DNA of 64,000 nucleotides from Burkholderiales bacterium (GTDB lineage: Bacteria; Pseudomonadota; Gammaproteobacteria; Burkholderiales; Ga0077523): NCBI GenBank assembly GCA_038324085.1, contig JBBQHP010000003.1:64720-128719 (forward strand), given 5' to 3'. A program made the translations under genes and the position numbers. Positions 16,985 to 42,667 of this stretch are shown here, piece after piece; the first letter of the stretch is position 1; each line of letters starts with the position of its first letter. The notes beneath the pieces are model-generated. The model did no database searches and was not told the origin of the DNA. It saw only the letters and a list, made by a program, of their open reading frames with translations.

Positions 16985-16990
16985 CCGCCG

Positions 16991-19573: not shown

Positions 19574-19618
19574 TCCGGCAGGACCGGGGCAAGCTTGCGT
19601 TGACGGGTCCGGGGCATG

Positions 19619-19662
19619 TGTCTATATTACATGACAGTAGTAAATGACATGTATAGATTACA
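19619..19662 (+). promoter_or_regulatory. crtD/crtE divergent control region: PpsR/CrtJ-type palindrome plus candidate crtE promoter
   Basis: Located in an AT-rich island. Perfect TGT-N12-ACA at 19619..19636. One-mismatch TGA-N12-ACA copies lie at 19632..19649 and 19645..19662 (13-nt phasing). -35 ATGACA at 19631..19636, 17 nt, then -10 TAGATT at 19654..19659. Confidence 0.6.
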
Positions 19663-19687
19663 CACTCACAATCCAAGGAGACACCGC

Positions 19688-20584
19688 ATGGACGCCATGA
19701 TGCGAGTCGAACAGGCCCTGGCCCTGGCCATCGAGCAGAATCTTGCAGCGGCGGTCGCGCAGACCGAGGCGCCCGGGTCCCCGCCCCGATTGGCACAGGC
19801 GCTCCGTTACGCCGTGTTCCCCGGCGGCGCACGAGTGCGGCCCCGCCTGTGTCTGGCGGTGGCCTGCGCCTGCAGCGAGGACGACACGGGAGTCGCCGAC
19901 GCCGCCGCCGCCGCCATCGAACTGCTCCATTGCGCATCGCTGATCCATGATGATCTGCCGTGTTTCGACGACGCGCCGACCCGGCGCGGCAAGCCGTCCG
20001 TGCACCGTGCCTTCGGTGAGCGCCTCGCAGTGCTCGCGGGCGATGCCTTGATCGTACTGGCGTTTCAGACGCTCGCGCGCGGCGTCTCGACCTCGCCCCA
20101 TCGGCTTGCGCCCCTGGTCATGATCATCAGCCGAGCGGTCGGGATGCCCATGGGCATCGTCGCCGGGCAGGCCTGGGAATGCGAACCGCATGTGGGGCTC
20201 GCCGACTACCAGCGGGCAAAGACGGGATCGCTGTTTGCCGCCGCCACGGTGGCGGGCGCGACGGCCGCCGGATTTCCCGAACCGGGACAGTGGCGCACCC
20301 TCGGCGAATGTCTGGGCGAAGCCTTCCAGGTGGCCGACGATCTGCGCGACGTGGTCTCCGATCCCATCGAGCTGGGCAAACCGACCGGACGCGACGCGGC
20401 CCTCGGGCGACCGAGCGCCGTGCACGACCTCGGCATGAGCGGGGCGCAGGAGCGCTTCGAGTATCTCGTGGCGACTGCGGTCGATTCGATTCCCGCGTGC
20501 TCCGGGGCGGAGGGACTGCGCGCGCTGATCACCGCCCAGGCCGGGCGCTTCCTGCCCAAGGAGCTGGTCCGCCGCGCGGCCTGA
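19688..20584 (+). CDS. crtE: geranylgeranyl diphosphate synthase
   Basis: ATG 19688, preceded by AAGGAG, within ORF 19616..20584. Contains FARM LIHDDLPCFDD and SARM FQVADDLRD. Confidence 0.9.
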   Translation: MDAMMRVEQALALAIEQNLAAAVAQTEAPGSPPRLAQALRYAVFPGGARVRPRLCLAVACACSEDDTGVADAAAAAIELLHCASLIHDDLPCFDDAPTRRGKPSVHRAFGERLAVLAGDALIVLAFQTLARGVSTSPHRLAPLVMIISRAVGMPMGIVAGQAWECEPHVGLADYQRAKTGSLFAAATVAGATAAGFPEPGQWRTLGECLGEAFQVADDLRDVVSDPIELGKPTGRDAALGRPSAVHDLGMSGAQERFEYLVATAVDSIPACSGAEGLRALITAQAGRFLPKELVRRAA

Positions 20585-20665
20585 GGGTGCGAGTCCTCGC
20601 TCTCATCGTTCACGTGATCCGTCCTTGCGGCGTCCAGCACAGGTGGGCGAGCGAGAGGGGGCGGA

Positions 20666-21964
20666 TTGCGCAGCGGAGGGACGCCAGTGCAGGCGCTCGA
20701 TCGAAATCACTTCGCGGTCTTGCACGCCGTCCGGCGCCTCGCCGGCCGACGGCGGATCACGTTCAGCCGGGCTCACGCTGAGGCGCCCGACGGTTCGGCG
20801 GCGCGTACGACACGAGTGGACGCGACGTTGACATGGTTGGAACGCTGGCTCGCGCAACGCGACCGATTGCTCGCGAATCCGCGCTTCCGGCGCTGGGCGG
20901 CGGCGTTCCCGTTCACCCGTCCGATCGCCCGACGCCGCGCCCGTGAACTGTTCGACCTGTGCGCAGGCTTTGTCTACACCCAGGTGCTGCTCACATGCGT
21001 GCGCCTCGATCTGTTCGAGAAGCTCGCCGCCGGCCCACACAGCGCCGCCGCGTTGGCGACGAAACTGGGTTTGTCTGCGGACGCGACCTCCCGTCTGATG
21101 GCGGCCGCCATTTCGCTTCGATTGGTGGAACGGCGGGGAGACCGCTTCGCCCTCGGGCCTCTCGGCGCGCCCATGGTCGGCAATGCCGCGATCGTCGCGA
21201 TGGTCGAGCACCATGCGTTGTTGTACGCCGATCTGCACGATCCAGTGGCCCTGCTGCGCGGCGCAGGCCCGCGGACAGGGCTGGCGCAATACTGGTCGTA
21301 CGCCAATGCCGAGCGACCGGACGAACTGGAAGCGGAACGGGTGGGCGCGTACACGCGACTGATGTCCGCTTCGCAAACCCTGGTTGCCGACGAGATCCTC
21401 GATGCCTATCCCATGCGGAGGCACCGTTGCCTGCTGGACGTCGGCGGCGGAGACGGGACTTTCCTGCTTGCGGCCGCAGCGCGCTCGCCCACGCTTCGCG
21501 TGACGCTCTTCGACCTGCCGGCCGTTGCCGAACGGGCACGAGCCCGGTTCGCCGCCGCCGGAATCGCCGATCGTGCGCGCGCCGTGGGCGGCAATTTTCA
21601 CGCCGAGCCCCTGCCCTCGGGCGCAGACATCGTCGCGTTGGTCAGGGTCATCCACGATCACAACGACACCGAGGCGCTGGCCCTGCTTCGCGCTGCGCGC
21701 CGGGCCCTGCCTCCGGGCGGAACCCTGTTGCTGGCGGAACCCATGGCGGATACCCCCGGGGCCGAGGCGATGGGCGGCGCCTACTTCGGTTTCTACCTGC
21801 TGGCAATGGGCCAGGGGCGGCCCCGGACGCCGTCGGAGCTCGGGGGAATGCTGCATGCAGCCGGCTTCGGGCGGATCCGTCCGGTGGCGACGCATCTGCC
21901 GCTGCAGACCCGTTTGCTGGTCGCGCAGGCCATGACCGATCGACATACTGTTAAGAAGTATTGA
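20666..21964 (+). CDS. crtF: hydroxyneurosporene O-methyltransferase
   Basis: Contains LANPRFRRWAAAFPFTRPIARRRA, the SAM motif LLDVGGGDGTF and LLLAEPM. The start is uncertain: GTG 20816 is an alternative to 20666. Confidence 0.85.
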   Translation: MRSGGTPVQALDRNHFAVLHAVRRLAGRRRITFSRAHAEAPDGSAARTTRVDATLTWLERWLAQRDRLLANPRFRRWAAAFPFTRPIARRRARELFDLCAGFVYTQVLLTCVRLDLFEKLAAGPHSAAALATKLGLSADATSRLMAAAISLRLVERRGDRFALGPLGAPMVGNAAIVAMVEHHALLYADLHDPVALLRGAGPRTGLAQYWSYANAERPDELEAERVGAYTRLMSASQTLVADEILDAYPMRRHRCLLDVGGGDGTFLLAAAARSPTLRVTLFDLPAVAERARARFAAAGIADRARAVGGNFHAEPLPSGADIVALVRVIHDHNDTEALALLRAARRALPPGGTLLLAEPMADTPGAEAMGGAYFGFYLLAMGQGRPRTPSELGGMLHAAGFGRIRPVATHLPLQTRLLVAQAMTDRHTVKKY

Positions 21965-21992
21965 CACTTCTATGAGTACGAGTAGACTGACA
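21949..21992 (+). promoter_or_regulatory. bchC promoter with PpsR/CrtJ-type operator
   Basis: Perfect TGT-N12-ACA at 21949..21966, overlapping the crtF stop and containing -35 TTGACA (21961..21966). 16 nt separate it from -10 TAGACT (21983..21988). A one-mismatch AGT-N12-ACA at 21975..21992 lies over the -10. Confidence 0.6.
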
Positions 21993-22042
21993 TTCATGGA
22001 CACTCAGCAATACACGGCGGGCTCGAACCCGGGCCCGACACA

Positions 22043-22996
22043 ATGAGTCCTGCGTTGAACACGTTGGCCGTTGTTCTCCAGGCGCCCGAGCAACTGGTAT
22101 TGAGCCGGCTACCCTTGACCGCCCCGGAAGAGAACGACGTCGTCGTCGATATCGAATGGAGCGGCATCAGCACTGGGACCGAGCGGCTGCTCTGGTCCGG
22201 GCGCATGCCGCAATTTCCGGGAATGGGCTATCCGCTCGTGCCGGGATACGAATCGGTCGGCCGCATCTCGGCCGTCGGCGCCCGAGCCAACGCGCAGGTG
22301 GGCGATCGCGTCTTCGTGCCGGGCGCCCGTTGCTTCGGCGACGTGCGCGGTTTGTTCGGCGGCGCCGCGGCGCGTCTGGTCGTTCCCGGAGACAAGGCCG
22401 TGCGCTTCGATGAAAGCCTGGGCGAACGCGGCGTCCTGCTGGCACTCGCAGCAACTGCATTTCACGCCGCGGCAGCCGAAGGAGCGGATCAACCCGACCT
22501 CATCGTCGGTCACGGTGTGCTCGGTCGTCTTCTGGCCCGGCTCGCCGTGGTCGCCGGCACCGAGCCACCGGTGGTGTGGGAGCGCAATCCCGATCGCGCG
22601 GCCGGCGCAGAAGGCTACCGCGTACTCGATCCGGCCGACGATCCGCGGCGCGACTATCGAGCCATATACGATGTCAGCGGCGATCCATCCCTGCTCGACA
22701 CTCTCATCGCTCGCCTCGCTCCCCGAGGCGAGATCGTACTTGCCGGGTTCTACAGTGAGCCGCTCGCGTTCACTTTCCCGCCCGCGTTCATGCGCGAGGC
22801 GCGCATCCGCGTCGCCGCCGAATGGCGCGAATCCGACCTCGTCGCGGTCAAGGCGCTGGCCGAATCCGGCCAGCTGTCCCTCGATGGTCTGATCACCCAT
22901 CGCTGCGAAGCCGGGGACGCCGATGCTGCCTATCGCACTGCGTTCAGCGATCCCGCCTGCCTCAAGATGATTCTCGACTGGAGATCCACGTCATGA
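22043..22996 (+). CDS. bchC: 3-hydroxyethyl bacteriochlorophyllide a dehydrogenase
   Basis: 317-aa ORF, MDR-family, containing VVVDIEWSGISTGTERLLWSGRMPQFPGMGYPLVPGYESVGRI. Confidence 0.95.
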   Translation: MSPALNTLAVVLQAPEQLVLSRLPLTAPEENDVVVDIEWSGISTGTERLLWSGRMPQFPGMGYPLVPGYESVGRISAVGARANAQVGDRVFVPGARCFGDVRGLFGGAAARLVVPGDKAVRFDESLGERGVLLALAATAFHAAAAEGADQPDLIVGHGVLGRLLARLAVVAGTEPPVVWERNPDRAAGAEGYRVLDPADDPRRDYRAIYDVSGDPSLLDTLIARLAPRGEIVLAGFYSEPLAFTFPPAFMREARIRVAAEWRESDLVAVKALAESGQLSLDGLITHRCEAGDADAAYRTAFSDPACLKMILDWRSTS

Positions 22997-24012
22997 CCTC
23001 GCTCGCCGGCAATTCCATCGCGGAACCGATCCGGTTCAGTCAGCGTGAGACCTTGCGCGCCGAAGCCGCGATCGAGCCCGATCCGGTCCCGACCGCGGCG
23101 CCCACCAAGACCACGCAGATCATCGCGATCTACGGCAAGGGCGGCATCGGCAAGAGTTTCACCCTCGCCAATCTGTCGTACATGATGGCGCAACAGGGCA
23201 AGAAGGTACTGCTGATCGGCTGCGACCCGAAGAGCGACACCACCAGCCTGCTGTTCGGCGGCAAGGCGTGCCCGACGATCATCGAGACCTCGTCGAAGAA
23301 AAAGCTGGCCGGCGAGCACGTCGCCATCGGTGATGTCTGCTTCAAGCGCGACGGCGTGTTCGCGATGGAGCTCGGTGGGCCCGAAGTGGGTCGCGGCTGT
23401 GGCGGCCGCGGCATCATCCACGGTTTCGAGACGCTGGAGAAACTCGGCTTTCACGACTGGGGCTTCGACTACGTGCTGCTCGATTTCCTCGGCGACGTCG
23501 TCTGCGGCGGCTTCGGCCTGCCGATCGCACGCGACATGTGCCAGAAGGTGATCGTGGTCGGATCGAACGACCTGCAGTCGCTGTACGTCGCGAACAATGT
23601 CTGTTCGGCCGTCGAGTACTTTCGCAAGCTGGGCGGCAATGTCGGCGTCGCCGGACTGGTCATCAACAAGGACGACGGCACCGGCGAGGCCCAGGCGTTC
23701 GCCGAACACGTCGGCATTCCCGTACTGGCGGCGATCCCCGCGAACGAGGACATCCGGCGCAAGAGCGCCAACTACGAGATCATCGGCCGGCCGGGAGGCC
23801 AGTGGGCGGCGGTGTTCGAGGAACTCGCGACCAACGTCGCGGAAGCGCCGCCGCTGCGGCCCACGCCGCTCTCGCAGGATGGTCTGCTCGGGTTGTTCTC
23901 CGGCGACGCGGTCGGGCGCAACGTGGTGCTCGAACCCGCGACCCTCTTCGACATGGTCGGCAGAAGCGAAATCGAGCACAAGTCGCTCGAGGTCGTCTAC
24001 GACGCAGCGTGA
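22993..24012 (+). CDS. bchX: chlorophyllide a reductase iron protein subunit X
   Basis: ATG 22993 (ATGA overlap with the bchC stop) within ORF 22822..24012. Contains [29 protein letters not shown] and CGGFGLP. Confidence 0.95.
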   Translation: MTSLAGNSIAEPIRFSQRETLRAEAAIEPDPVPTAAPTKTTQIIAIYGKGGIGKSFTLANLSYMMAQQGKKVLLIGCDPKSDTTSLLFGGKACPTIIETSSKKKLAGEHVAIGDVCFKRDGVFAMELGGPEVGRGCGGRGIIHGFETLEKLGFHDWGFDYVLLDFLGDVVCGGFGLPIARDMCQKVIVVGSNDLQSLYVANNVCSAVEYFRKLGGNVGVAGLVINKDDGTGEAQAFAEHVGIPVLAAIPANEDIRRKSANYEIIGRPGGQWAAVFEELATNVAEAPPLRPTPLSQDGLLGLFSGDAVGRNVVLEPATLFDMVGRSEIEHKSLEVVYDAA

Positions 24013-24016
24013 TGCG

Positions 24017-25690
24017 ATGAACGCGAAGACTCCGTCCGAACTGCTGACGCCCGCGCCCGGCGCAGAAATCGTCTACGACGGCGCCGGCGCCGCGCCGATG
24101 ACGAACGACGGCGACCGCGCATCATCCGAAAGAAGGACCATTCCCATCGCGGTCGCGGGTGCGGCCGCGAACCCACCCACTGTCGCCGCCGAGGCGTCCC
24201 TGGTGGACTCCGGTGATGGTACCGGCTGCCATTCCGGCAAGGAGCAGATGCTGGCTGCGGCATCGGTGTCTGCCAACAGCGCGACATTGCAGCGCTATGC
24301 GGCCGACTATCCGCTGGGCCCCCATGACCAGCCCCAGAGCATGTGCCCGGCGTTCGGCAGCCTCAGAGTGGGCCTGCGCATGCGGCGCACGGCCACCGTG
24401 CTGTCGGGCTCGGCCTGTTGCGTATACGGACTTACCTTCACGTCGCATTTCTATGGCGCCAAGCGCAGCGTCGGCTACGTGCCGTTCAATTCCGAGACGC
24501 TGGTCACCGGCAAGCTGTTCGAGGATATCCGGGAAGCCGTGTTCAAGCTGGCCGACCCGGCGCTCTACGACGTCGTGGTGGTGACGAACCTGTGCGTCCC
24601 GACGGCCTCCGGCGTGCCGTTGCGCCTGTTGCCGAAGGAGATCAACGGCGTGCGCATCATCGGCATCGACGTGCCCGGCTTCGGCGTGCCGACCCACGCC
24701 GAAGCCAAGGACGTCCTTGCCGGCGCGATGCTGCACTACGCGCGGACCGAGGCCGAACAAGGTCCCGTTGCGGCGCCGCGCAACGGCGTCAGCGACCGGC
24801 CCACAGTGACCTTCCTGGGTGAGATGTTTCCCGCCGATCCGGTCGGCATCGGCATGATGCTCGAGCCCCTCGGGCTCGCAGCCGGCCCGGTCGTGCCGAC
24901 GCGCGAATGGCGCGAGCTTTATGCGGCACTCGATTGCGCCGCCGTGGCCGCCATCCATCCTTTCTACACCGCATCGATGCGCGAATTCGAAGCCGCGGGC
25001 AGATCCATCGTCGGATCGGCTCCCGTGGGCTACGACGGCACTGCGGCATGGCTCGATGCGATCGGCGCTGCATGCGGTGTCGCGCGCGACAAGGTGGACG
25101 CCGCCAAGAACAAGGTCCTCCCGGCGATCCGTGGCGCGCTGGAGCGAATGCCGATCAAGGGCAGGGTGACGCTGTCGGGATACGAAGGCTCCGAATTGCT
25201 GGTGGCGCGGCTGCTCATCGACAGCGGGGCAGACGTGCGCTACGTGGGCACGGCTTGCCCGCGCACACGCTGGTCCGACCCGGATCGCGAATGGCTGGAA
25301 GCGAAGGGCGTGCGCGTCCAGTACCGCGCCTCGCTCGAGCAGGATCTCGCGGCCATGGCGGAGTTCGAACCTGATCTCGCGATCGGCACCACGCCCGTGG
25401 TCCAGGCGGCCAAGGAGCGCGCGATTCCAGGTCTGTATTTCACCAACCTCATCTCGGCTCGCCCGTTGATGGGTGTCGCCGGTGCCGGCTCTCTCGCCCA
25501 GGTGATCGGCGGCGCACTTGCGAACAAGGCCCGCTTCGACACGATGCAGGAATTCTTCACCGGCGTCGGCGAAGGGTTCTCCGCCGGCATCTGGGAAGAT
25601 GTGCCGAAGGATCGGCCGGAGTTCCGCGCCGCGTATCGCAAGCAACTCGACAAGCTTGCCCGGAAAAGCAAGACGGAGGAGCCCGTCTGA
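24017..25690 (+). CDS. bchY: chlorophyllide a reductase subunit Y
   Basis: ATG 24017 within ORF 23597..25690. Contains [48 protein letters not shown]. The roughly 68-aa Ala/Gly/Pro-rich N-terminus makes the exact start uncertain. Confidence 0.9.
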
Positions 25691-25821
25691 TGGCCGGTCA
25701 GTCCCTCATGCACGGAAACGGTGGCGCGCAGCCGACGTTCGCCACGTTCCGATTCCCGCTTACGACGAACGCGCGCGCTCGGCGCGCCGAGGCCACCGAT
25801 CTGGGGAGCGCGACGTGCTAG
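25690..25821 (+). CDS. candidate 43-aa ORF bridging bchY and bchZ
   Basis: The ATG overlaps the bchY TGA (TGATG) and the TAG lies 4 nt into bchZ. Translation: [43 protein letters not shown]. Hand counts give GC3 about 84% against GC1 63% and GC2 65%. I recognised no family. Confidence 0.25.
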
Positions 25822-27269
25822 TCAACGATCACGATCGCGCGGGCGGATACTGGGGCGCGGTCTACGTTTTCACCGCGCTGAAGGGGTTGCAGGTCATCAT
25901 CGACGGTCCCGTCGGTTGCGAGAACCTCCCGGTGACGTCGGTGCTGCACTACACCGATGCGCTGCCGCCGCACGAGTTGCCGATCGTGGTCACGGGCCTG
26001 GGCGAAGAAGAACTCGGACAGCACGGCACCGAAGGCGCGATGAAGCGCGCGCACAAGGTGCTCGATCCGGACCAGCCCGCGGTGGTGGTGACGGGGTCCA
26101 TCGCCGAGATGATCGGCGGCGGCGTGACGCCCGAGGGCACCAACATCAAACGCTTCCTGCCCCGCACCATCGACGAGGACCAGTGGCAAAGCGCCAATCG
26201 CGCGCTCTTCTGGCTCTGGAGCGAGTACGGCCTGAAGAAGATCCCGGCGCACAAAGCGCGCGCGCCGCAAGAGAAGCCGAGAGTGAACATCGTCGGGCCG
26301 AGCTACGGCTACTTCAACATGCCATCCGACCTCGCGGAGATGCGCCGCCTGGTCGAAGGCATCGGCGCCGAAGTGAACATGGTATTCCCGCTCGGCAGCC
26401 ACATCGCGGATGTGGCGAAGCTCGCGAACGCCGACGTCAACGTCTGCATGTACCGCGAATTCGGCAGGATGCTGTGCGAGGCGCTGGAGCGTCCCTACCT
26501 CCAGGCGCCGATCGGCCTGCACAGCACGACGAAGTTCCTGCGCACGCTGGGTGATCTGCTCGGCCTCGATCCCGAGCCGTTCATCGAGCGCGAAAAGCAC
26601 ACGACCATCAAGCCGCTGTGGGATCTGTGGCGCTCGGTGACGCAGGATTTCTTCGGCACGGCGAGCTTCGCCATCGTCGCCAACGAAACCTATGCCCGAG
26701 GCATTCGTCATTTCCTCGAAACCGAGATGGGCCTGCCGTGCGCCTTTTCGTTTGCGCGCCGCCCCGGCGTCAAGCCCGACAACGATGCGGTGCGCCAGGC
26801 GCTGAAGGACAAGCCGCCGCTGGTCCTGTTCGGCAGCTACAACGAGCGGATGTACTCGGCGGAACTGGGCGGGCGTTCGATGTACATCCCGGCATCCTTT
26901 CCCGGCGCCATCATCCGGCGGCACACCGGTACGCCGTTCATGGGTTACGGCGGTGCCACCTACCTCGTGCAGGAAGTGTGCAACGCGCTGTTCGATGCGC
27001 TGTTCAACATCCTTCCGCTCGGCACCGATCTCGATCGGGTGGACGCGACGCCGGCCCGGCTCGCGCCCGCGGGCGAACTGCCGTGGGACGCGGAAGCGCA
27101 CCAATTGCTGGCGCGGCTGGTCGAGACCCAGCCGGTTCTGGTGCAGATCTCCGCTGCCAAGAGAATTCGCGACCTCGCCGAGCGCGATGCCCGCAGCGCG
27201 GGAGAAATGCGCGTCACACAGGAACGGGTCGCGCGTTCCCGCACCGCGATCGAAGGAGCCATGGCATGA
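25815..27269 (+). CDS. bchZ: chlorophyllide a reductase subunit Z
   Basis: GTG 25815 (GGGGAG upstream) within ORF 25518..27269 gives [62 protein letters not shown], matching the N-terminus I remember for BchZ. Confidence 0.9.
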
Positions 27270-27338
27270 ACACTACGCCGCGCTCCGCAGTGAACGAATT
27301 CAAGGTTTCGCCCGGTCGTGTCGGGCGGAAAGTGCGTC

Positions 27339-27358
27339 GTGACGCCTGTCTGCGTCAC
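27339..27358 (+). other. hairpin in the bchZ-pufB leader
   Basis: GTGACGC-ctgtct-GCGTCAC, extendable to about 11 bp using flanking cgtc/ggcg. It lies 65 nt upstream of pufB. Confidence 0.4.
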
Positions 27359-27422
27359 GGCGGTTCCCGCCGCGGGCAGTTTCTGCGGCAACGGCCGGAA
27401 GGCCTATCTGGAGGCTAGTTAT

Positions 27423-27575
27423 ATGGCTGACATGCAAAGAAGCGGCTCGCTGTCGGGGCTGACGGAGGACGAAGCCAAGCAGTTTCACGGCATCTTCGTG
27501 ACCAGCTTCATCGTGTTCACGGTGATCGCAATCGTCGCGCACATCCTGGCGTGGAGCTGGCGCCCCTGGTTGTAA
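27423..27575 (+). CDS. pufB: light-harvesting 1 beta polypeptide
   Basis: ATG 27423 (GGAGG upstream) gives [50 protein letters not shown]. It has the canonical beta motifs, including AH..AW.WRPW. Confidence 0.9.
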
Positions 27576-27604
27576 CCGGGCGCTGCCTCGAGGAGGGCTC
27601 GCAA

Positions 27605-27829
27605 ATGTCTGACGGACGAAACCAATCGCTACCGGCGCTCGCGCAGAACGGGTCGAACGGGTTCGGCGTCATCTTCTTGTCGAGCTTCATCGTCTTTCTG
27701 CTGGTGGCGCTGTTCGCGCAGACATTCGCGCTGCAGTGGCGGACCTGGTTTCCCGGGGCCGAGGGGGAAAGGTCGATGATCGGAGGCGTGAAGACGGCGG
27801 TCTACACCTTTATGTCGCATCTGTCATAG
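27605..27829 (+). CDS. LH1 beta-like paralogue lacking the BChl-ligating His, with a C-terminal extension
   Basis: ATG 27605, 7 nt after GAGGAGGG, gives MSDGRNQSLPALAQNGSNGFGVIFLSSFIVFLLVALFAQTFALQWRTWFPGAEGERSMIGGVKTAVYTFMSHLS. It aligns gap-free with PufB residues 21-50 (14/30 identical). GC3 is about 82%. The stop lies inside the pufA SD. Confidence 0.6.
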   Translation: MSDGRNQSLPALAQNGSNGFGVIFLSSFIVFLLVALFAQTFALQWRTWFPGAEGERSMIGGVKTAVYTFMSHLS

Positions 27830-27841
27830 GAGACGAGAAAC

Positions 27842-28024
27842 ATGTGGAGAATCTGGCTTCTGTTCGATCCGCGCAGGTCGTTGGTTGCGCTGTTCACGTT
27901 CCTGTTCGTGCTGGCGTTGCTGATCCATTTCATTCTGTTGAGCAGCGACAAGTACAACTGGATCGAGGGTTCGAAGGCGCACGGCGGCGGAACACCGCCC
28001 GCGGTGCCGGCGGCCCAGAAATAG
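27842..28024 (+). CDS. pufA: light-harvesting 1 alpha polypeptide
   Basis: [43 protein letters not shown]... carries the canonical alpha motifs IW..FDPRR and A..IH..LLS....NW. AGGAGA SD. Confidence 0.9.
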
Positions 28025-28042
28025 CCTGTTCGCGCTCGCAAA

Positions 28043-28088
28043 GGGTGGCGGACGGACGGGAGTCGATACTCTCACGCGTCCGCTGCCC
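28043..28088 (+). other. intercistronic pufA-pufL stem-loop
   Basis: The outer 12-bp stem pairs 28043..28054 with 28077..28088 (two G-U pairs). There is a 3x3 internal loop. The inner 6-bp stem pairs 28058..28063 with 28068..28073 around the CGAT tetraloop. Confidence 0.6.
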
Positions 28089-28141
28089 TGAGTGCCTAGA
28101 CGAGTCGGCCCGCCAAGGGGCGCCCGAAGGAGGAGGCAGCG

Positions 28142-28963
28142 ATGTCGATGCTCAGCTTTGAAAGGAAGTACCGCGTTCGAGGTGGAACGCTGCTCGGGGG
28201 AGACCTGTTCGATTTCTGGGTCGGGCCGTTCTACGTGGGCTTCTTCGGGGTCACCACGGCGTTCTTCGCATTGCTCGGCACCGCGCTGATCGTATACGGC
28301 GCAGCGATCGGACCGACCTGGAATATCTGGCAGATCAGTATCGCCCCGCCGGACCTGAAATACGGACTCGCGTTCGCACCGTTGAAGGAGGGCGGGCTCT
28401 GGCAGCTCATCACCTTCTGCGCGGTCGGATCGTTCTGCTCATGGGCGCTGCGCGAGGCCGAGATCTGCCGCAAGCTCGGCATCGGCTACCACGTGCCCGT
28501 CGCGTTCGGTTTCGCGATCCTCGCCTACGTGACGCTCGTCGTGTTCCGGCCCCTGCTCCTGGGCGCCTGGGGCCACGGTTTTCCCTACGGAATACTGAGC
28601 CACCTCGACTGGGTCTCGAATACCGGTTACCAGTACCTGCACTTTCATTACAACCCGGCGCACATGATCGCGGTGAGCTTCTTCTTCACCACGACTCTCG
28701 CGCTGTCGCTCCACGGCGCGTTGATCCTCTCGGCGACCAGTCCGGCGAAGGGCGAGCCGATGAAGACCCCGGAGCACGAGAACACGTTCTTCCGGGACAC
28801 GATCGGCTACTCCATCGGACCCCTCGGAATCCATCGACTCGGCCTGTTCCTCGCGCTGAGCGCGGTGTTCTGGAGCGCGGTCTGCATCATCATCAGCGGA
28901 CCTTTCTGGACGCGCGGCTGGCCGGAGTGGTGGGGTTGGTGGCTCAACCTGCCGATCTGGTAA
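28142..28963 (+). CDS. pufL: photosynthetic reaction centre L subunit
   Basis: 273-aa ORF containing [33 protein letters not shown] and [22 protein letters not shown]. Confidence 0.97.
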
Positions 28964-28989
28964 CGAGAACCAAAAACTAGGGGACCACC

Positions 28990-29967
28990 ATGGCGGAATA
29001 CCAGAACATTTTCACGCGCGTGCAGGTTCGTGGACCTGCCTATGCCGGCGTGCCGCTCGGCCGCGGCGCCTATCGCCGCGACGGCAAGCCGTTCTTCGTG
29101 CACCTGCTCGGGCGGCTGGGCGATGCGCAGGTCGGACCGATCTATCTCGGCTGGACCGGCATCGCGTCGCTGATCTGCGGCTTCATCGCGTTCGAGATCG
29201 TCGGGCTCAACATGTTCGCTTCGGTCAACTGGGACCCGGTGCAGTTCGCGCGGCAGCTGTTCTGGCTCGGTCTGGAACCGCCGGCGCCCGAGTACGGGCT
29301 GCACATACCGCCGTTGCGACAGGGCGGATGGTGGCTCATGGCCGGGATGTTCATGACGGCGTCGGTCCTGCTGTGGTGGACGCGCATGTATCGGCGGGCC
29401 AAGGCGCTCGGCATGGGCACGCACGTGGCCTGGGCGTTCGCGTCCGCCATCTGGCTCATGCTCGTGCTCGGCTTCATCCGCCCGCTGCTCATGGGCAGCT
29501 GGAGCGAGGCAGTGCCGTTCGGCATCTTCCCGCATCTCGACTGGACCGCGGCGTTCTCGATCCGCTATGGCAACCTGTTCTACAACCCGTTCCACATGCT
29601 CTCCATCGCGTTCCTGTACGGGTCGGCGCTGCTGTTCGCGATGCACGGCGCGACGATCCTCGCGGTCAGCCGGTTCGGCGGTGATCGCGAACTCGAGCAG
29701 GTGGTCGATCGCGGCACAGCTTCCGAGCGGGCCGCATTGTTCTGGCGCTGGACCATGGGCTTCAACGCGACGATGGAATCGATCCATCGCTGGGCGTGGT
29801 GGTTCGCGGTGCTGACGCCGCTGTGCGGCGGCATCGGCATCCTGCTGACCGGCACCGTGGTGGACAACTGGTACCTGTGGGCAGTCAAGCACCACGTGGC
29901 GCCGGCGTATCCGTCGGTCTTTCCCCCGGCCATCGATCCGGCCGCGCTGAGCGGGGTGGCCAAATGA
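28990..29967 (+). CDS. pufM: photosynthetic reaction centre M subunit
   Basis: 325-aa ORF containing [16 protein letters not shown] and [44 protein letters not shown]. Confidence 0.97.
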
Positions 29968-29987
29968 ACGGTTCGGGGAGGTTCGTG

Positions 29988-31355
29988 ATGCATACCAGCG
30001 CACGCCGACTCGGCGGGGTATTCGCCTTGGGGCTCGCCGCCCTGCTCGTCGGTTGCGAACGGCCGCCGACCGAGACCGTACAGCGCGGCTACCGGGGCAC
30101 GGGAATGGTCGAGGTCTACAACCCGCGCACGATCGACAAGCAGCAGGAGGCGAACAAGGTGCCGGAGCCCATCCCGGCGGCGGCGCCCGGCGGCCCCTCT
30201 GCGGCGTCGACGTTCAAGAACGTGAAGGTGCTGAACGACCTCTCGGCCGCCGAGTTCACGCGCGTCATGGTGGCGATCACGAGCTGGGTCTCGCCGAAGG
30301 AAGGCTGCGCGTACTGCCACCAGGGTGCGGATTTCGCCGACGACTCGCTCTACACGAAGGTGGTCGCACGACGCATGCTGGAGATGACGCGCCACATCAA
30401 CGCAGACTGGAAAAATCACGTCGCCGAAACGGGTGTGACCTGCTATACGTGTCACCGCGGCCAACCGGTGCCGCAGAACGTCTGGTTCACCGATCCGGGA
30501 CCGAGGATGGCCAAGGGTCTCGCGGGCGGACTGGGCGAGCAGAACCTGCCCGCCGCAGAGGCCGGACTCGCCGCCCTGCCGCACGATCCGCTGTCGCGCT
30601 TCCTCGTCAAGGACAATCCCATCCGCGTCGTATCCGGCCATGCCTTGCCCACCGAGGGCGGGAAGTCGATCCCGCAGACGGAGTGGACCTATGCGCTGAT
30701 GATGTACATGTCCGAGTCGCTGGGGGTCAACTGCACGTATTGCCACAACAGCCGATCCTTCGCGCAATGGGAAACGAGCAGTCCACCGCGCACGACTGCG
30801 TGGTACGGCATCAGATTGGCGCGTGATCTCAACACGGCGTACCTGGAACCGTTGAGCTCGATCTTTCCGAAAGGGCGCCTCGGCCCGCTCGGCGATCCGC
30901 CCAAGGTCGGTTGCGGTACCTGCCATCAGGGCGTCTACAAGCCTTTGTACGGAGCGACGATGGCCAAGGATTATCCGGAACTCGGACCGGGTCACGGCGC
31001 ACCTGCCCCCGAACCGGAGAAGACCTCGGATGCGGCCGATGCCCCTGGCGTGCTCGGCAAGATCCTGTTCGAAACCGGCAGCCGGAACCTCGATGCGGAC
31101 AACCTGAAGGTGATCGACGAGGTCGCTCGCCAGTTGCAGGGCGACGCGGCACTCAACATCGCGATCTCGGGCTACGCCGATAAGAGCGGCAATGCGGACA
31201 AGAACCTGGAACTCGCCAAACAGCGCGCCTTCGCGGTTCGGGACGCGTTGAAGACCGCCGGCGTCCACGAGGACCGGATCGAGCTGAAGAAGCCCGCGTT
31301 CGTGATCGGCGCCGCGCAGGCTGATTCGCGTCGGGTGGACATCGTCACCCAATAG
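29988..31355 (+). CDS. pufC: reaction-centre tetraheme cytochrome c subunit with a C-terminal OmpA-like domain
   Basis: ATG 29988 (GGGGAGG 7 nt upstream; alternative ATG 29964 overlaps the pufM stop). Lipobox LAALLVGC. Four CxxCH motifs (CAYCH, CYTCH, CTYCH, CGTCH). A Pro/Ala linker is followed by an OmpA_C-like segment at about 31047..31352. Confidence 0.9.
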   Translation: MHTSARRLGGVFALGLAALLVGCERPPTETVQRGYRGTGMVEVYNPRTIDKQQEANKVPEPIPAAAPGGPSAASTFKNVKVLNDLSAAEFTRVMVAITSWVSPKEGCAYCHQGADFADDSLYTKVVARRMLEMTRHINADWKNHVAETGVTCYTCHRGQPVPQNVWFTDPGPRMAKGLAGGLGEQNLPAAEAGLAALPHDPLSRFLVKDNPIRVVSGHALPTEGGKSIPQTEWTYALMMYMSESLGVNCTYCHNSRSFAQWETSSPPRTTAWYGIRLARDLNTAYLEPLSSIFPKGRLGPLGDPPKVGCGTCHQGVYKPLYGATMAKDYPELGPGHGAPAPEPEKTSDAADAPGVLGKILFETGSRNLDADNLKVIDEVARQLQGDAALNIAISGYADKSGNADKNLELAKQRAFAVRDALKTAGVHEDRIELKKPAFVIGAAQADSRRVDIVTQ

Positions 31356-31382
31356 CGCACTGATTCCACGCAAGTGTCCGCT

Positions 31383-31410
31383 GAAGGGCGGCCCGCCAGG
31401 GTCGCCCTTC
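31383..31410 (+). terminator. strong hairpin 28 nt after the pufC stop (terminator or 3-prime stabiliser)
   Basis: GAAGGGCGGCCC-gcca-GGGTCGCCCTTC forms a roughly 12-bp stem including one G-U pair, followed by ATTCATCT (only a weak U-tract). Confidence 0.5.
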
Positions 31411-31840
31411 ATTCATCTGGGCGGGGGCGCGGGGGGTATCGACGAGCGGCCTCCGCATGTCGGCATGCAGGACAACCCGGCGGCTCGCGCGGGTCATCAC
31501 CGGCAGGCGAAGGCCGGATCGACACGTCGCACTTCGGTGCCGCCGCGTGATGCGATGGCGCCAGGCCGGATCGAACCGCCGACGTGGCAGCGAAGCGCGC
31601 CCCGACGCAGTTCGACCGGCCCGTTCCGGACGTCCGGTTCAGGCGTTCTCCCGGTTGGAACTGTGTCGCCGGCTGAGCGGGATATCGGCCGGTACCCGCC
31701 ACCATCGCCGATCCGATACGCCGATCCGTGCACCGCGGCGAATCGCGGTGCAGTGCCGGGTCTGCCGTACCGCCCGCGCCCCCGGTTCCCGGTGAATCAG
31801 ATGAGTACGCAGGCGCCTGGCTAAGCCCCAGTTCGCTGTC

Positions 31841-31885
31841 GTCCCGGCGGGGCAGGATCCCGGGACTCGTTCTCTATTCGTTACC
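31841..31885 (+). terminator. second hairpin plus T-rich tail at the end of the post-pufC non-coding region
   Basis: GTCCCGG-12 nt-CCGGGAC (31841..31866) is followed by TCGTTCTCTATTCGTT. The T-rich side is on the plus strand, so the orientation fits a plus-strand transcript rather than puhE. Confidence 0.35.
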
Positions 31886-31909
31886 TATCGGCGACGGCCG
31901 GGGGCGACG

Positions 31910-32698
31910 TTACCGGGCGTCGCGAGAGCGCAGCCCCCAGCTCCACAACGCGGTGGTCGGCAACGGCAACACCATGAACCAGTGTTCGAGGATCGCCAGC
32001 GACAGCAAGGTGGCGGCGAGGGTCAGGCTCGCAGTGTCGAAGGCGCTCGCCGTGGGCGCGGCGGCTTCGGTCCACAGAATGCCCGCGAGGATGGTCGCCA
32101 CGGTCACGGATATCGGGAACAGCAGGTTCATCGGCCGCTTCAGGAAGAAGCTGCGCAGGTAGCGCAGGCGCTCGGGCAGGAACTCCTCGCCCAGGTTGCG
32201 CACGCCGAGGAAAAGATTCAGCTTGGCGCTCAGGCGCATGACCCAGAGGATCATGAAGGTCCAGGTGCCGACCTGGTTCGGGGCGCCGTCCGTCAACAGG
32301 ACGACGATCATTGCCGCCACGACGATGGCCAGCTCGTGATAGGCGATGGCTTGCACAGCGTGCAGGAAGCGTTGCCACTCGTTGCTGCCCGGCGGCGAAG
32401 CCGAGGTTCGCGGACCGGTGACGTAACCCAGCAGGAACGCGGTCTCGACCCAGCCCCAGATCAGCACGGCGCAGGTGAACGCACAGTAGGCGCCGGTGAC
32501 CGTGGCGCTTTCGCTGCTGCGATCCAGCCCGATCAGCGCGAGCAGCGCCAGGCAGGTGGCCCCGAGCATGCTCCAGCCGAACGTGCGCCGCGGCAGGCCG
32601 TCGAGAAACAGGATCGCCCCGGTGGTGAACCACCAGACGAACATTGCGTACAGCGCGGGCAATCCGTAGTCGATCATGCGAGCTCGATACCAGAGCAC
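31910..32698 (-). CDS. puhE: photosynthetic complex assembly protein PuhE
   Basis: 262-aa polytopic membrane ORF directly after acsF, containing MIDYGLPALYAMFVWWFTTGAILFLDGLPRRTF. The start is either GTG 32698 or ATG 32677. Confidence 0.8.
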   Translation of the reverse strand: MLWYRARMIDYGLPALYAMFVWWFTTGAILFLDGLPRRTFGWSMLGATCLALLALIGLDRSSESATVTGAYCAFTCAVLIWGWVETAFLLGYVTGPRTSASPPGSNEWQRFLHAVQAIAYHELAIVVAAMIVVLLTDGAPNQVGTWTFMILWVMRLSAKLNLFLGVRNLGEEFLPERLRYLRSFFLKRPMNLLFPISVTVATILAGILWTEAAAPTASAFDTASLTLAATLLSLAILEHWFMVLPLPTTALWSWGLRSRDAR

Positions 32699-32702
32699 CC
32701 GT

Positions 32703-33806
32703 CTACCAGGCCGGGGCCATCAGCACTTGTTGCGGGATGGTGTTGTGCTTCATCGGCAGCACATAGAGCCGCGCGAAGGTCGCGGCGCCGGCCGCGGCCA
32801 GCCCGACTCGCTTCAACCGTCCGACAACACCCCCGCGCGCCTTGGCCGCTTCCGTGGCCACCGCGATGCGGCGCAACCGCTCCAGGCCGGCGCGGAACTT
32901 CGGATTGTCGATGTCCAGTTCCACCGGGAACACCTGCCGGGCGATCTCGGAAGTGATCCGGAACACCTGGTAGTCGTACTCCGTGGAATCGAGTCCGAGC
33001 GCGGTATGCAGTTCGGGTCGGGTGTGGTCGCGCACGAACATCGTCGCGTACACGGCGAGCAGGAAGAAACGGATCCAGAGCTTGTTGTGCCCACGAAGCA
33101 GTTTCGGGTCGGCGCGCATCAGCAGCGCCAGCGCCTCGCCGTGACGGAACTCGTCGTTGCACCAGCGGTGGAACCACTTGAAGATCGGATGGAACCGGTG
33201 CTCCGGATGCCGCTCGAGCTGGCGATAGATGGATATGTAGCGCGCGTAGCCGATCTTCTCGGAGAGGTAGGTCGCGTACAGGATGAACTTGGGCTGGAAA
33301 TACGTGTACTTCTTCTCGCGCTTGAGGAAACCCAGGTCGACCGCCACGTCGAAATCCCGCAGGGACTGGTTGATGAAGCCGGCGTGGCGCGATTCGTCGC
33401 GGGCCATGAAACCCATCAGCTTCTTGATGTCGGGATTGGAGACGTTCTTCTCGATCTCCTTGTACAGCACGCAGCCCGAGAATTCGGACGTCACCGACGA
33501 GATCAGGAAGTCGAGGAATTCGCGATGCAGCGGCGCCGGCAGCTCGCGGATCTCCGCGGTGAACTCCGGGGTGCGCTTGAAGTGATCGTGATTGTTGTCG
33601 CCCTCGAATTCGAGCAGCAGGCGGTCCCATTCGGCGCGCACGCCGCTCACGTCCATGCGGTTCATCGCCGCGAAGTCCGTGGTGTAGAAGCGCGGGCTCA
33701 GCATGGTGTCCTGCTGCGCGCGCACGGTGGCGTCGTCGGAGCTCGCGATCACGTCGGCGGTGGTGTCCATGGTGTCTTCCTTCGATGTTGTCGCCGCGTT
33801 GTTCAT
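32703..33806 (-). CDS. acsF: aerobic Mg-protoporphyrin IX monomethyl ester oxidative cyclase
   Basis: 367-aa ORF containing [13 protein letters not shown], with di-iron ExxH motifs in [18 protein letters not shown] and DEFRHGEA. Confidence 0.95.
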
Positions 33807-34267
33807 CCGCTCTTGCCGGGTACGGGAAGCAGTCGTGCGAACACGCCTGCATTGGTCGGTCCGAACGCCTCCAGATCGACGCGGCGACCGGTGGTCGGGT
33901 CCATCAAGGTGAGGCGACCGTCAGCGTGGGCGACCAGACGAAACGCCTGCTCCGGTCCGATGCCCTGGCGGTGGCGCTCGCGTGCCAGGCCGCGGAGCGT
34001 GCCGCGGAGAAATCCGTTCGTGCCCGGAGCGACGGTATCGACGAGTGACCCGTCGCGAGCCGCGAGCACGACGATGCTGCCGTCGGAGCGGTCCTCGAAT
34101 CGGAGTTCGGCCTCGCTGATCGCGGGTGAGTCGGCGACCTTCGTGGTTTCCATTCCGGTCAGGCGTACCGCGGTGACGCCGAGCAGCGCGACGCCAACGA
34201 GCAGCGCAGCCCCGATGAGGGGCCCGCGCGGGAACGAAGCGGTGCGGAACGGAAATGAATCACTCAT
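33803..34267 (-). CDS. puhC: photosynthetic complex assembly protein PuhC
   Basis: 154-aa ORF with one N-terminal TM helix and [20 protein letters not shown]...[26 protein letters not shown]. Its stop overlaps the acsF start (ATGA). Confidence 0.85.
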
Positions 34268-34280
34268 GTCGGTCTCCTGA

Positions 34281-34955
34281 TCATTGTGCCGCAGCGAACG
34301 GTCCCGACCGGCCGGCGATCTGGGGCGCGGTTTCGTTCGCGACTGCCACCAGCCGGGCGCTGCCGCCCGCGGCAGCGGCGAGGGCGTGCGACAGGATCCC
34401 CGCCACGCGCGCGGCGTCGGGAACGCCGCGCAACATCGGCTCCGGACGCTTCAGGTGCCAGGGACGGGCGTGGGGCCACAGGTGCAGGTAGGCGATGCGG
34501 TCGTCACCGCCGAGCGTGAGCGGGATGTCGCCGCTGCCGTCCGGCCAGACCTTCAGACCGGCGGAACCGACCGTCTTGAAAGGCACGTTGAACGTGACCG
34601 TCAGCACGATGCCGATGCGCATGACCAGCCGCTGGCTCGTGATCGTGTACCAGGTCGTGCGACTGGTGAGCCAGGCGAGCAGGCACATCATCCCGATCGC
34701 GAACGAGGCCACCGCGATCAACGCGGTCGATCCGATCAGCGCCTGGAACGCGCCGACGCCGTCGGCGATGTTCGACACGACGCGGATGGCGAGCAGCGCC
34801 GCGAAGTAGATCGCGATCTTGCGCACGTGGAAGGCACGCACCGCCAGACTGGTCCAGCGCGGCGCCCCTTCCCACAGGACGCGTTCGTTGGTCGGGAGCG
34901 GTTCCGGCAGGCCGCCCCGCTCCAGTTGCTCCATCTCTGCTTCGTGGTGGTTCAC
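34281..34955 (-). CDS. puhB: photosynthetic complex assembly protein PuhB
   Basis: Within ORF 34281..35219. GTG 34955 overlaps the puhA TGA (alternative ATG 34934). Contains LPEPLPTNERVLWEGAPRWTSLAVRAFHVRKIAIYF and YTITSQRLVMRIGI. Confidence 0.85.
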   Translation of the reverse strand: MNHHEAEMEQLERGGLPEPLPTNERVLWEGAPRWTSLAVRAFHVRKIAIYFAALLAIRVVSNIADGVGAFQALIGSTALIAVASFAIGMMCLLAWLTSRTTWYTITSQRLVMRIGIVLTVTFNVPFKTVGSAGLKVWPDGSGDIPLTLGGDDRIAYLHLWPHARPWHLKRPEPMLRGVPDAARVAGILSHALAAAAGGSARLVAVANETAPQIAGRSGPFAAAQ

Positions 34956-35719
34956 AGGAACGGCTCCGCACGGGACGGATCGGCGTAGAGCGTCCCGCCA
35001 CCGTAGTAGGCGACGATCTTCTCTTCTTCCAGGAAGGTCACCTGATCGGGATTCTTGAGACCCGGAACGTCGTTGAAGTGCCGCGCCATGATCGAGCGCA
35101 CCTTCACCATGCCGTTGCGTCCGCTGCTCACCTTGGCGAAGGGCGCAGGCAGCAGCACTGTCCTGCCGTAGGCATCGACCTCGAAATAGCGGATCAGCGT
35201 TTCGGACAGATCCACCCATACGTCGCTCACCTTGCCCGCCACGAGGCCGTCGGCGCCCACGACCGGCATGCCGCGCGGATCGGGATCGCCCGAGGCGAGC
35301 GAGTAGCTCGGCGCGCTGCGCAGCGGGACGATCTTGGGCCGACCGTCGACCGTCAGGTCCGGCGTGTCGGCGCGCATGGCGTAGGCACCCGGGCCGACGC
35401 CGGCGAGCATCGGGTCGCCGTTCGGCTCCAGCGGGGCGCCCGGCCAGGGTCCCACGGGGGTCGCGTTGACCGGGCGGCCGTCGCGAATGTCGTTCGGCGC
35501 ACTGAAGGTGCCGCCGTGCGGCAGCACGAAGGTCTTGGGTTGCGGGATCGCGGGGAAGCCCTGGACGCGAATGCTACCGGAGCGGTCGGATTCGAGCGGG
35601 TAGCCCTCGCGCTTGTTTTCGCGGTGCAGGTAATAGATCAGCCCCGCAAAGAACAGCCAGAACGCGTAGAGCGCGAGTTGCGCGACATCGAGGTACTGGG
35701 TTATGGCGCCGGTTTGCAT
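34952..35719 (-). CDS. puhA: photosynthetic reaction centre H subunit
   Basis: ATG 35719 (GGGAGG SD) within ORF 34952..36037. Contains MQTGAITQYLDVAQLALYAFWLFFAGLIYYLHRENKREGYPLE and a C-terminal PRC-barrel-like region. Confidence 0.95.
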   Translation of the reverse strand: MQTGAITQYLDVAQLALYAFWLFFAGLIYYLHRENKREGYPLESDRSGSIRVQGFPAIPQPKTFVLPHGGTFSAPNDIRDGRPVNATPVGPWPGAPLEPNGDPMLAGVGPGAYAMRADTPDLTVDGRPKIVPLRSAPSYSLASGDPDPRGMPVVGADGLVAGKVSDVWVDLSETLIRYFEVDAYGRTVLLPAPFAKVSSGRNGMVKVRSIMARHFNDVPGLKNPDQVTFLEEEKIVAYYGGGTLYADPSRAEPFL

Positions 35720-35747
35720 AGCGTGACCTCCCTTGAAGAATTGGTTC

Positions 35748-37181: not shown

Positions 37182-37198
37182 GCGTCGGTCATCCTCGG

Positions 37199-37924: not shown

Positions 37925-37928
37925 GGTG

Positions 37929-42638
<4,710 letters not shown>

Positions 42639-42667
<29 letters not shown>

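Follow-up and report, generated by a model that had tools for sequence, protein, structure and literature searches.

A conserved paralogue of the LH1 beta polypeptide without the bacteriochlorophyll-ligating histidine is encoded between pufB and pufA in phototrophic Burkholderiales

The window analyzed here, a 64,000-nt stretch of DNA from a Burkholderiales bacterium, contains a puf operon in which an ORF of 74 codons lies between the LH1 beta gene pufB and the LH1 alpha gene pufA. We gave this beta-like ORF and the family of its orthologues the working name X. The features of the locus are, from 5' to 3':

27423–27575, + strand: pufB, genuine LH1 beta of 50 aa with His40, ending in WRPWL without a tail (Pfam LHC E = 3.4e-13; NCBIfam pufB 85.8 bits, cut-off 61)
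27590–27597, + strand: Shine-Dalgarno (SD) sequence of X, GAGGAGGG, 7 nt 5' of the ATG, read directly
27605–27829, + strand: X, beta-like ORF of 74 codons with ATG at 27605 and TAG at 27827–27829, probable orthologue of ORF2/ORF74
27605–27661, + strand: N-terminus of X, residues 1–19, presumed cytoplasmic, variable, the beta motif SLSGLTxxEAxEFH gone
27653–27745, + strand: transmembrane helix of X predicted by AlphaFold2, residues 17–47, with the conserved stripe F24, F28, L32, A35, A38, Q39
27719–27721, + strand: CAG codon of Gln39 of X, at the position of the BChl-Mg ligand His in LH1 beta
27737–27748, + strand: W45-R46-T47-W48 of X, the periplasmic-side beta signature (W+6, R+7, W+9) that is kept
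27752–27826, + strand: tail of X, residues 50–74, PGAEGERSMIGGVKTAVYTFMSHLS, predicted as a loop followed by a short helix (59–71)
27827–27833, + strand: TAGGAGA, in which the stop codon of X overlaps the SD sequence of pufA, read directly
27842–28024, + strand: pufA, LH1 alpha of 60 aa (Pfam LHC E = 1.2e-17; NCBIfam pufA 78.2 bits, cut-off 35)
28029–28095, + strand: G+C-rich stem-loop between pufA and pufL (minimum free energy −61.6 kcal/mol for 28022–28141, z = −2.9)
28142–29967, + strand: pufL (28142–28963) and pufM (28990–29967), reaction-center subunits, downstream in the same operon

The G+C content at the third codon positions of X is 0.82 (61/74), versus 0.53 and 0.47 in the other two frames, a pattern identical to that of pufB, pufA, and pufL. 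The original prediction had described a 74-codon ORF between pufB and pufA with a third-position G+C content of about 82%, an SD sequence 7 nt before the ATG and a TAG within the pufA SD sequence TAGGAGA; the coordinates, both signals, and the count were borne out. Further downstream, pufC follows pufL and pufM, and the PufL protein of the window matches L chains of the PDB with scores of up to 528 bits. The stem-loop between pufA and pufL is likely the 3' boundary or a stabilizer of an abundant pufB-X-pufA mRNA segment, and a structure of this strength 3' of pufA agrees with such a segment being stable. On the other side of the locus, only 153 nt separate bchZ from pufB. An "ORF1" was also sought upstream of pufB in the window, where we found an overlapping 129-aa ORF (26953–27342) with no family match.

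X is similar to the PufB protein encoded next to it. Residues 20–49 align without gaps to PufB 21–50 with 14 of 30 positions identical, as predicted, and BLASTP lengthens the alignment to 18 identities in 45 residues (40%, E = 1e-11). All of the top-scoring PDB chains are LH1 beta polypeptides, with E values down to 9e-18 for the X profile. Together with the BLASTP result, they support the initial proposal of a beta-polypeptide paralogue. The differences from PufB that had been pointed out were all confirmed: His40 is replaced by Gln39 and His22 by Gly21, WRPW has become WRTW, and a 25-residue tail follows WRTWF. Curated models place X outside the known families: it has no match to the Pfam LHC family (PF00556) at E ≤ 1, scoring 9.8 bits at E = 1.3 for a cut-off of 23, and it reaches 18.7 bits with the NCBIfam pufB model (NF040862), whose cut-off is 61. 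Judging from these alignments, X derives from LH1 beta by duplication and is a predicted single-span membrane polypeptide. In the AlphaFold2 model computed from the family alignment, the helix spans residues 17–47, with a block-mean pLDDT of about 88 over residues 21–40 and of 57–58 at both ends; it is followed by a loop formed by PGAEGERS and then, in a tail modeled with low confidence, by another short helix (59–71). Comparison of this model with the PDB by Foldseek gave one meaningless match, as expected of a low-confidence single helix.

The gene has been reported before. In the puf operon of Rubrivivax gelatinosus, two extra ORFs of unknown function were described, one of which, ORF2, is located upstream of pufA (Nagashima et al. 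1994, as cited in PMC12817894). The more recent study notes that the conserved His is missing from ORF2 and compares this protein with alpha polypeptides only (PMC12817894, 2025). In Roseateles depolymerans, ORF74 (RD2015_RS05155) lies between pufB (RS05150) and pufA (RS05160) (PMC10037100, 2023). An earlier study found that the major 1-kb puf transcript carries pufA, pufB, and ORF74 together (Suyama et al. 2002, as cited in PMC10037100). The same three genes showed the largest changes under carbon starvation, being the three most induced loci, with an increase of about 500-fold for the transcript (PMC10037100). We found members of the X family in congeners of these bacteria, namely Roseateles terrae (WP_088452153.1, 74 aa), Roseateles puraquae (WP_088484634.1, 74 aa), and several metagenome-assembled genomes (MAGs) of Rubrivivax sp. 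X shares with ORF2 and ORF74 its position and strand between pufB and pufA, with ORF74 the length of 74 codons and with ORF2 the missing His; in these respects, nothing essential differs. Based on position, length, the missing His, and the congeneric sequences, we consider X of the window to be another orthologue of the published and uncharacterized ORF2/ORF74. The gene is not new, having been reported for about 30 years as an anonymous ORF. The original statement that no puf operon with this arrangement had been described does not hold, since later papers trace ORF2 to 1994 and ORF74 to 2002. The proposed co-expression with LH1 is supported by the 1-kb pufB-ORF74-pufA transcript of Roseateles (PMC10037100). 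X is a real, functional, and expressed gene, the transcript data being those of the Roseateles orthologue.

Relatives of X are encoded in about 525 genomes, as estimated by a scan with one genome per species. The best 80 of these 525 loci belong nearly all to Burkholderiales, with Roseateles terrae, Pelomonas cellulosilytica, Ideonella sp. A 288, Piscinibacterium candidicorallinum, and strain AAP99 among the cultured carriers. The gene order bchZ-pufB-X-pufA-pufL-pufM was found in all 80 of these fetched loci. An intact X, free of frameshifts, occurs at the same position and with a similar length in 81/81 loci and has exactly 74 codons in 54 of them. The distance from its stop codon to the start of pufA is 11–13 nt in 55/79 loci, and PufB is devoid of a tail (47–50 aa) wherever X is present. 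Searching a large protein collection with the sequence identified 33 relatives of 65–78 aa that are 51–95% identical to X; a profile search retrieved many more. An orthologue in MAG OZ257154.1 is 96% identical, the window itself representing an uncultured Burkholderiales lineage, and identity with the R. terrae orthologue is 58% over aligned residues 10–74. Two apparent natural PufB-X fusions (P0034 and P0084) resemble gene calls that were merged, the PufB C-terminus being corrupted and the topology implausible. The translation signals of the three genes differ. A core SD motif of 4 nt or more is present ahead of 46/79 X genes versus 76/78 pufB and 79/79 pufA genes; the SD of X is weak or absent in the other 33/79 loci and strong in the window and its closest relatives. 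Judged by SD strength, translation of X in many lineages probably falls below that of alpha and beta, which would fit with a sub-stoichiometric synthesis.

Loss of the ligand His, first noticed in the window, is a fixed trait of the family. Among 80 orthologues, the ligand position is occupied by Gln in 69, Gly in 6, Lys in 3, Thr in 1, Ser in 1, and His in none, whereas 78/78 PufB proteins have His. In the wider family, this position can be Q, S, R, A, T, G, L, I, E, N, C, or K. Residues F28, A35, W45, R46, P50, G51, A52, and V66 are invariant in the 80 orthologues; W48 is conserved in 79/80, F24 is nearly invariant, and V62, Y67, F69, M70, and S71 are conserved in at least 94% each. Alignment with the PufB proteins of the same genomes shows that A-4, A-1, W+6, R+7, and W+9, numbered relative to the His position, are kept, as they are in LH1 beta, and that X, like beta, has a single transmembrane helix with one conserved stripe (F24, F28, L32, A35, A38/Q39). 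In contrast, L+2 and W+4, both invariant in PufB, are free to vary in X, and the PufB-invariant motif SLSGLTxxEAxEFH with His-18 is absent or variable, the mean column entropy of the N-terminus being 2.86 in X versus 0.68 in PufB. As the beta-type stripe and the W-R-x-W signature are retained, X would pack in a beta-like manner against an alpha chain and the periplasmic interface. Conversely, X would bind the beta-side BChl non-canonically if at all, because His is never present, the surrounding residues are relaxed, and the ligand position accepts Gly, Ser, Thr, or Lys and, in the wider family, Arg, Ala, Leu, or Ile. The loss of the Mg-ligating His, the second His, and the N-terminal motif, combined with the maintenance of one helix face and of W-R-x-W, fits with beta-type packing in a polypeptide lacking the canonical beta-BChl site.

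Database searches also gave relatives of the C-terminal tail. The top PDB matches to X are His-bearing beta chains with long C-terminal extensions, 8z81_B (beta1 of Halorhodospira halophila, with the tail ...WRPWIPGAEGYGSVIEGV...), 9m8m_B, and 7xxf_B (beta of Rhodopila globiformis), and the alignments reach into the tail. An exhaustive HMMER search of 1.8 billion representatives returned 274 clusters at E ≤ 1e-3; among the best 150 of these 274, 33 bear the His and are ordinary tail-bearing beta chains whose tails read PG.EGY.S...GVK.A....LP.... The view of the tail of X as an add-on is therefore unsupported: by sequence comparison, it is an ancestral feature, homologous to the extension at the C-terminus of tail-bearing beta chains in the LH1 of other Proteobacteria, such as 8z81_B, 7xxf_B, and 9m8m_B. 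In true beta chains, this tail is not seen in cryo-EM maps, which was attributed to "truncation and/or disorder" (PMC11802735). The tail is more conserved than the helix and is the most constrained part of X.

Selection was estimated by pairwise dN/dS (Nei-Gojobori, medians) in 75 genomes, using the same genome pairs for the three genes. Median values are 0.31 for X, 0.22 for PufB, and 0.29 for PufA, with most pairs close to saturation at synonymous sites; values of 0.12–0.26 for X among the four closest genomes agree with these medians. Within X, dN/dS is about 0.81 for residues 1–19, 0.33 for the transmembrane segment, and 0.15 for the tail. The original prediction had proposed following dN/dS and the fate of Gln39 and of the tail across orthologues, and these analyses revealed purifying selection overall (0.31), Gln in 69/80 sequences and a highly conserved tail. 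It had also considered that X might be a decaying duplicate. That X falls below the curated LHC and pufB thresholds and that its first 19 residues evolve almost neutrally would suit a decaying pufB duplicate or a chance ORF devoid of function. However, a decaying duplicate is excluded because the ORF is intact in 81/81 loci, with a fixed position and length and no frameshift, and because dN/dS values of 0.31 overall and 0.15 in the tail indicate purifying selection. With, in addition, relatives encoded in about 525 species genomes and the transcription and induction observed in Roseateles, we consider the absence of function virtually impossible.

The exhaustive search revealed further His-less groups. 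One subgroup has Leu in place of W+9 (...WRxLLPGAE...) and the same pufB-X-pufA arrangement. A second subfamily, which we call Arg-type (...ARxLPxxWRPWP...EAKAAAxTFxPFAFMG), has Arg at both His positions, and its gene is flanked by bchZ and by a pufB that encodes a tail. Named carriers are Gammaproteobacteria MAGs, including Woeseiaceae, as well as Geminicoccaceae and Algihabitans albus; a solved complex was sought for these carriers and none was found. The occurrence of both Gln-type and Arg-type genes indicates that ligand-less beta paralogues are recurrent in puf operons. We considered a scenario of duplication, degeneration, and complementation, in which the tail lost by PufB would have been retained by X. 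PufB in all X loci is in fact without a tail, yet many phototrophs lack both the tail and X, and Arg-type genes occur next to a pufB that encodes a tail, so that this scenario is at best lineage specific and was rejected.

Several small polypeptides associated with LH1 offer points of comparison. No PDB chain belongs to the X family according to sequence and profile searches, and we found no Burkholderiales RC-LH1 structure, Rubrivivax included, in the PDB or in the literature searched, the closest solved reaction centers coming from other groups. We found no proteomic detection of X. Like PufX of Rhodobacter, protein W of Rhodopseudomonas palustris, and protein-Y/U, X is a small single-helix polypeptide encoded alongside LH1, and its proposed role in ring interruption or quinone access would be analogous. 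The pufX gene follows pufM, that of protein W lies elsewhere than in the puf operon, and, unlike X, neither of the two proteins is beta-derived. X is not a PufX, as its gene lies between pufB and pufA, and the PufX family is absent from its Pfam matches and PufX chains from its PDB matches at E ≤ 10. Protein-Y/U is likewise missing from the Pfam and PDB matches, and the NCBIfam search gave no similarity to PufQ, PufX, protein W, or gamma either. Similarly, the chains of protein W (6Z5S W) and of the gamma polypeptides (6ET5, 7XXF) are absent from the PDB matches to X at E ≤ 10 in the sequence search and at E ≤ 1 in the profile search. The gamma or gamma-like polypeptides of Blastochloris viridis, Rhodopila globiformis, and Halorhodospira halochloris are, as proposed for X, pigment-free small transmembrane helices at the beta ring, but they are much shorter, are not beta-like, and are not encoded between pufB and pufA. 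Like X, PufQ of Rhodobacter spans the membrane once, measures about 75 aa, and has its gene in the 5' part of the puf operon, without itself being a light-harvesting subunit. X was rejected as a PufQ, since no Pfam PufQ match was obtained at E ≤ 10 and pufQ occupies the bchZ-pufB interval upstream of pufB rather than the position of X. A further point of comparison is chain 8k5o_4 of the H. halochloris RC-LH1, a divergent member of the beta family with a long C-terminal extension (105 aa) that is present in one copy among 16 standard beta chains. This match is distant (E = 3e-5 to the X profile), and the protein belongs to another lineage and is encoded at another gene location.

Our preferred reading, to which we give a probability of about 40%, is that X is a subunit of the LH1 ring that takes the place of a beta polypeptide next to PufA, in low copy number and without the canonical BChl. 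X would occupy a beta-type position against PufA, and the resulting alpha/X unit would lack the beta-side bacteriochlorophyll or hold it weakly. Such a unit could form a pigment-poor seam allowing the passage of quinone and quinol, or mark the start or the closure of the ring, and the conserved periplasmic tail would fix X to a neighboring protein surface. The original proposal of a subunit that could open or gate the ring is similar and plausible. This arrangement is suggested by the homology to beta, the conserved synteny, the purifying selection, and the retained helical stripe. It also agrees with the tight spacing of 11–13 nt to pufA, the transcription with pufBA in Roseateles, and the weaker translation signals in 33/79 loci, and 8k5o_4 is a precedent for a special beta-type position in the ring. 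Extra or variant single-helix polypeptides are known at special LH1 positions in the case of PufX, protein W, and the multiple alpha/beta types of Chromatiaceae. Against it, X is encoded on the abundant pufBA mRNA segment and not with pufLM, as is pufX, whose product is present once per reaction center, and its SD sequence is strong in the window. The AlphaFold2 model of the tail is of low confidence. The absence of the homologous tail from cryo-EM maps of beta suggests that it may act before or during assembly (PMC11802735), and Gemmatimonadota, which acquired a related gene cluster, lost the ORF2-type ORF and kept LH1 (PMC12817894).

The main rival, possible although we rather doubt it, is an assembly or pigment-delivery factor: a beta mimic that pairs transiently with newly made PufA, or loosely holds BChl, and is absent from the mature complex, comparable to helpers of the PufQ/LhaA type or to the cyanobacterial one-helix Hlips aiding photosystem assembly. 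The most constrained segment of X (dN/dS of 0.15) corresponds to one missing from mature structures of true beta, which suggests a role before assembly, and stable pigment binding is not the conserved function, given that G, S, T, K, R, A, L, or I can stand at the ligand position. The location directly upstream of pufA, with a gap of 11–13 nt, would suit co-translational pairing; the abundance of the pufBA mRNA and the presence of the second His-less subfamily in the pufQ slot upstream of pufB point the same way, and to our knowledge the earlier biochemistry of R. gelatinosus LH1 described no third polypeptide. However, X has no sequence relation to PufQ or to any known assembly factor. We know of no LH assembly factor that is beta-like, and all structurally characterized extra paralogues of the alpha/beta type that we are aware of, as illustrated by 8k5o_4, are ring components. 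That Gln39 itself ligates the BChl Mg, giving alpha/X units with a normal or spectrally shifted BChl pair, seems unlikely. Gln is found in 86% of the Burkholderiales orthologues, the BChl-pocket residues A-4, A-1, W+6, R+7, and W+9 are invariant, and in other proteins the Mg of (bacterio)chlorophyll can be ligated by an amide side chain; but 11/80 orthologues have Gly, Ser, Thr, or Lys, the Arg, Ala, Leu, and Ile of the wider family cannot ligate Mg, and the pocket residues L+2 and W+4, invariant in PufB, are unconstrained in X. Even less probable is a stoichiometric third LH1 polypeptide, with about one X per alpha-beta pair lying between or outside the beta chains, as gamma does in B. viridis or the gamma-like polypeptide in R. 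globiformis. The 1-kb transcript shared with pufB and pufA, together with the strong SD sequence in the window and its closest relatives, would favor it, whereas about 40% of the lineages have a weak SD or none and X bears no similarity to gamma polypeptides. In classical LH1 preparations of R. gelatinosus, a stoichiometric polypeptide of 8 kDa would probably have been noticed. Sequence data alone cannot separate the ring-subunit, assembly-factor, Gln-ligand, and third-polypeptide readings.

The exit of quinol from a closed LH1 ring and the nucleation and closure of this ring are long-standing questions that have been answered case by case, by PufX, protein W, gaps, or pores. No betaproteobacterial core complex is known to be among the solved structures. 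Our analysis adds that an anonymous ORF encodes a selectively maintained and ligand-less polypeptide, derived from beta, in essentially every puf operon recovered with X. Its critical part is the periplasmic tail that is common to the precursor forms of true beta chains, and X also bears on the function of the beta C-terminal extension. A farther-reaching reading, possible but in our view less likely than not, is that the LH1 ring of phototrophic Burkholderiales (more than 500 species-level genomes) contains a dedicated BChl-free subunit derived from beta and anchored by its ancestral tail; this would represent a third, independently evolved answer to quinone access or ring closure after PufX and protein W. 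If this were true, the recurrent His-less beta paralogues, Gln-type here and Arg-type in Gamma- and Alphaproteobacteria, would mark a general and overlooked class of antenna-derived "blank" subunits. Relatives of X are named "hypothetical protein" at NCBI and are automatically annotated as "LH1 beta chain" in JGI and UniRef, a name that is misleading for X.

The window segment 14419..44450 is a typical photosynthesis gene cluster, in which the following features were located.

Features of the photosynthesis gene cluster (window coordinates)
within 14419..44450, one on the plus and one on the minus strand: two phytoene-desaturase-like genes
within 14419..44450, plus strand: bchY, bchZ and the puf operon
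22822..24012, plus strand: bchX
28029..28095, plus strand: long G+C-rich stem-loop, directly 3' of the pufA stop codon
29964..31355, plus strand: pufC, reaction-centre tetrahaem cytochrome (lipobox LLVGC; CytoC_RC domain, aa 32-340)
31910..32698, minus strand: puhE-like DUF3623 gene
32703..33806, minus strand: acsF-like rubrerythrin-fold gene
34952..36037, minus strand: puhA
37199..37924, minus strand: bchM
38879..42667, minus strand: bchH
42639..44450, minus strand: bchB-like gene

The beta-like gene lacking the BChl-ligating His, X, is preceded by a strong Shine-Dalgarno sequence in the window (27590..27604) and in its closest relatives (L001-L004). Among the relatives' puf loci carrying X (L001-L080), this signal is weak or absent in 33 of 79, a figure possibly inflated by start-codon assignment in the variable N-terminus, whereas those of pufB and pufA are nearly always strong. 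The 120-nt intercistronic region after pufA, which contains the stem-loop, has a folding energy of -61.6 kcal/mol (z = -2.9). In Rhodobacter, mRNA-stabilising hairpins follow pufA, and the window stem-loop resembles them. A consensus scan of window 27200..28200 found neither a sigma-70-like promoter nor an intrinsic terminator.

Only 153 nt (27270..27422) separate bchZ from pufB; the window therefore has no counterpart of the 'ORF1' reported upstream of pufB in R. gelatinosus. A GTG at 27318, in frame with pufB, would lengthen this gene by 35 codons, and is probably not used as its start. Roseateles depolymerans carries an additional small gene, 'ORF77' (RD2015_RS05175), between pufM and pufC (PMC10037100). 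There is no space for such a gene in the window (29967..29985), because the start of pufC adjoins the end of pufM.

The wider-family search also revealed a further group of His-less beta-like proteins, a second subfamily with Arg at both His positions and a tail of the form ...EAKAAAxTFxPFAFMG.

Genes of this Arg-type subfamily (locus coordinates)
L081, 1195..1425
L085/L086, 5001..5240
L087, 326..562

They lie between bchZ and a pufB encoding a tail-bearing beta polypeptide. In Rhodobacter, the bchZ-pufB slot is the place of pufQ; despite this common location, the Arg-type protein has no similarity to PufQ. Its named carriers comprise Gammaproteobacteria MAGs, Woeseiaceae, Geminicoccaceae and Algihabitans albus. 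Genes for heme oxygenase and a bacteriophytochrome come after the puf operon in L085/L086.

Within the X family itself, one subgroup (...NWRSLLPGAEG...VYTVISQLS) carries Leu nine residues after the BChl-ligand His position, where Trp is otherwise invariant. Its gene order is pufB-X-pufA, as elsewhere in the family.

X genes of the Leu subgroup (locus coordinates)
L083, 598..837
L084, 438..677

Public gene calls join PufB and X in a single product in two protein records, P0034 (131 aa) and P0084 (132 aa). The PufB C-terminus is corrupted in both (...WQPWGFSSQQ..., ...WRPGCSKQ...), so the most likely explanation is a frameshift or an artefact of gene calling rather than a real two-helix protein.

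The window PufC also carries a linker rich in Ala, Pro and Glu, and at its C-terminus an OmpA-family domain (PF00691, aa 368-441, E = 1.4e-13). The presence of this domain suggests that the reaction-centre cytochrome is tethered to peptidoglycan. Among the 63 informative Burkholderiales loci, the extension is absent from 33, as in Roseateles terrae and Pelomonas, and present in 30.
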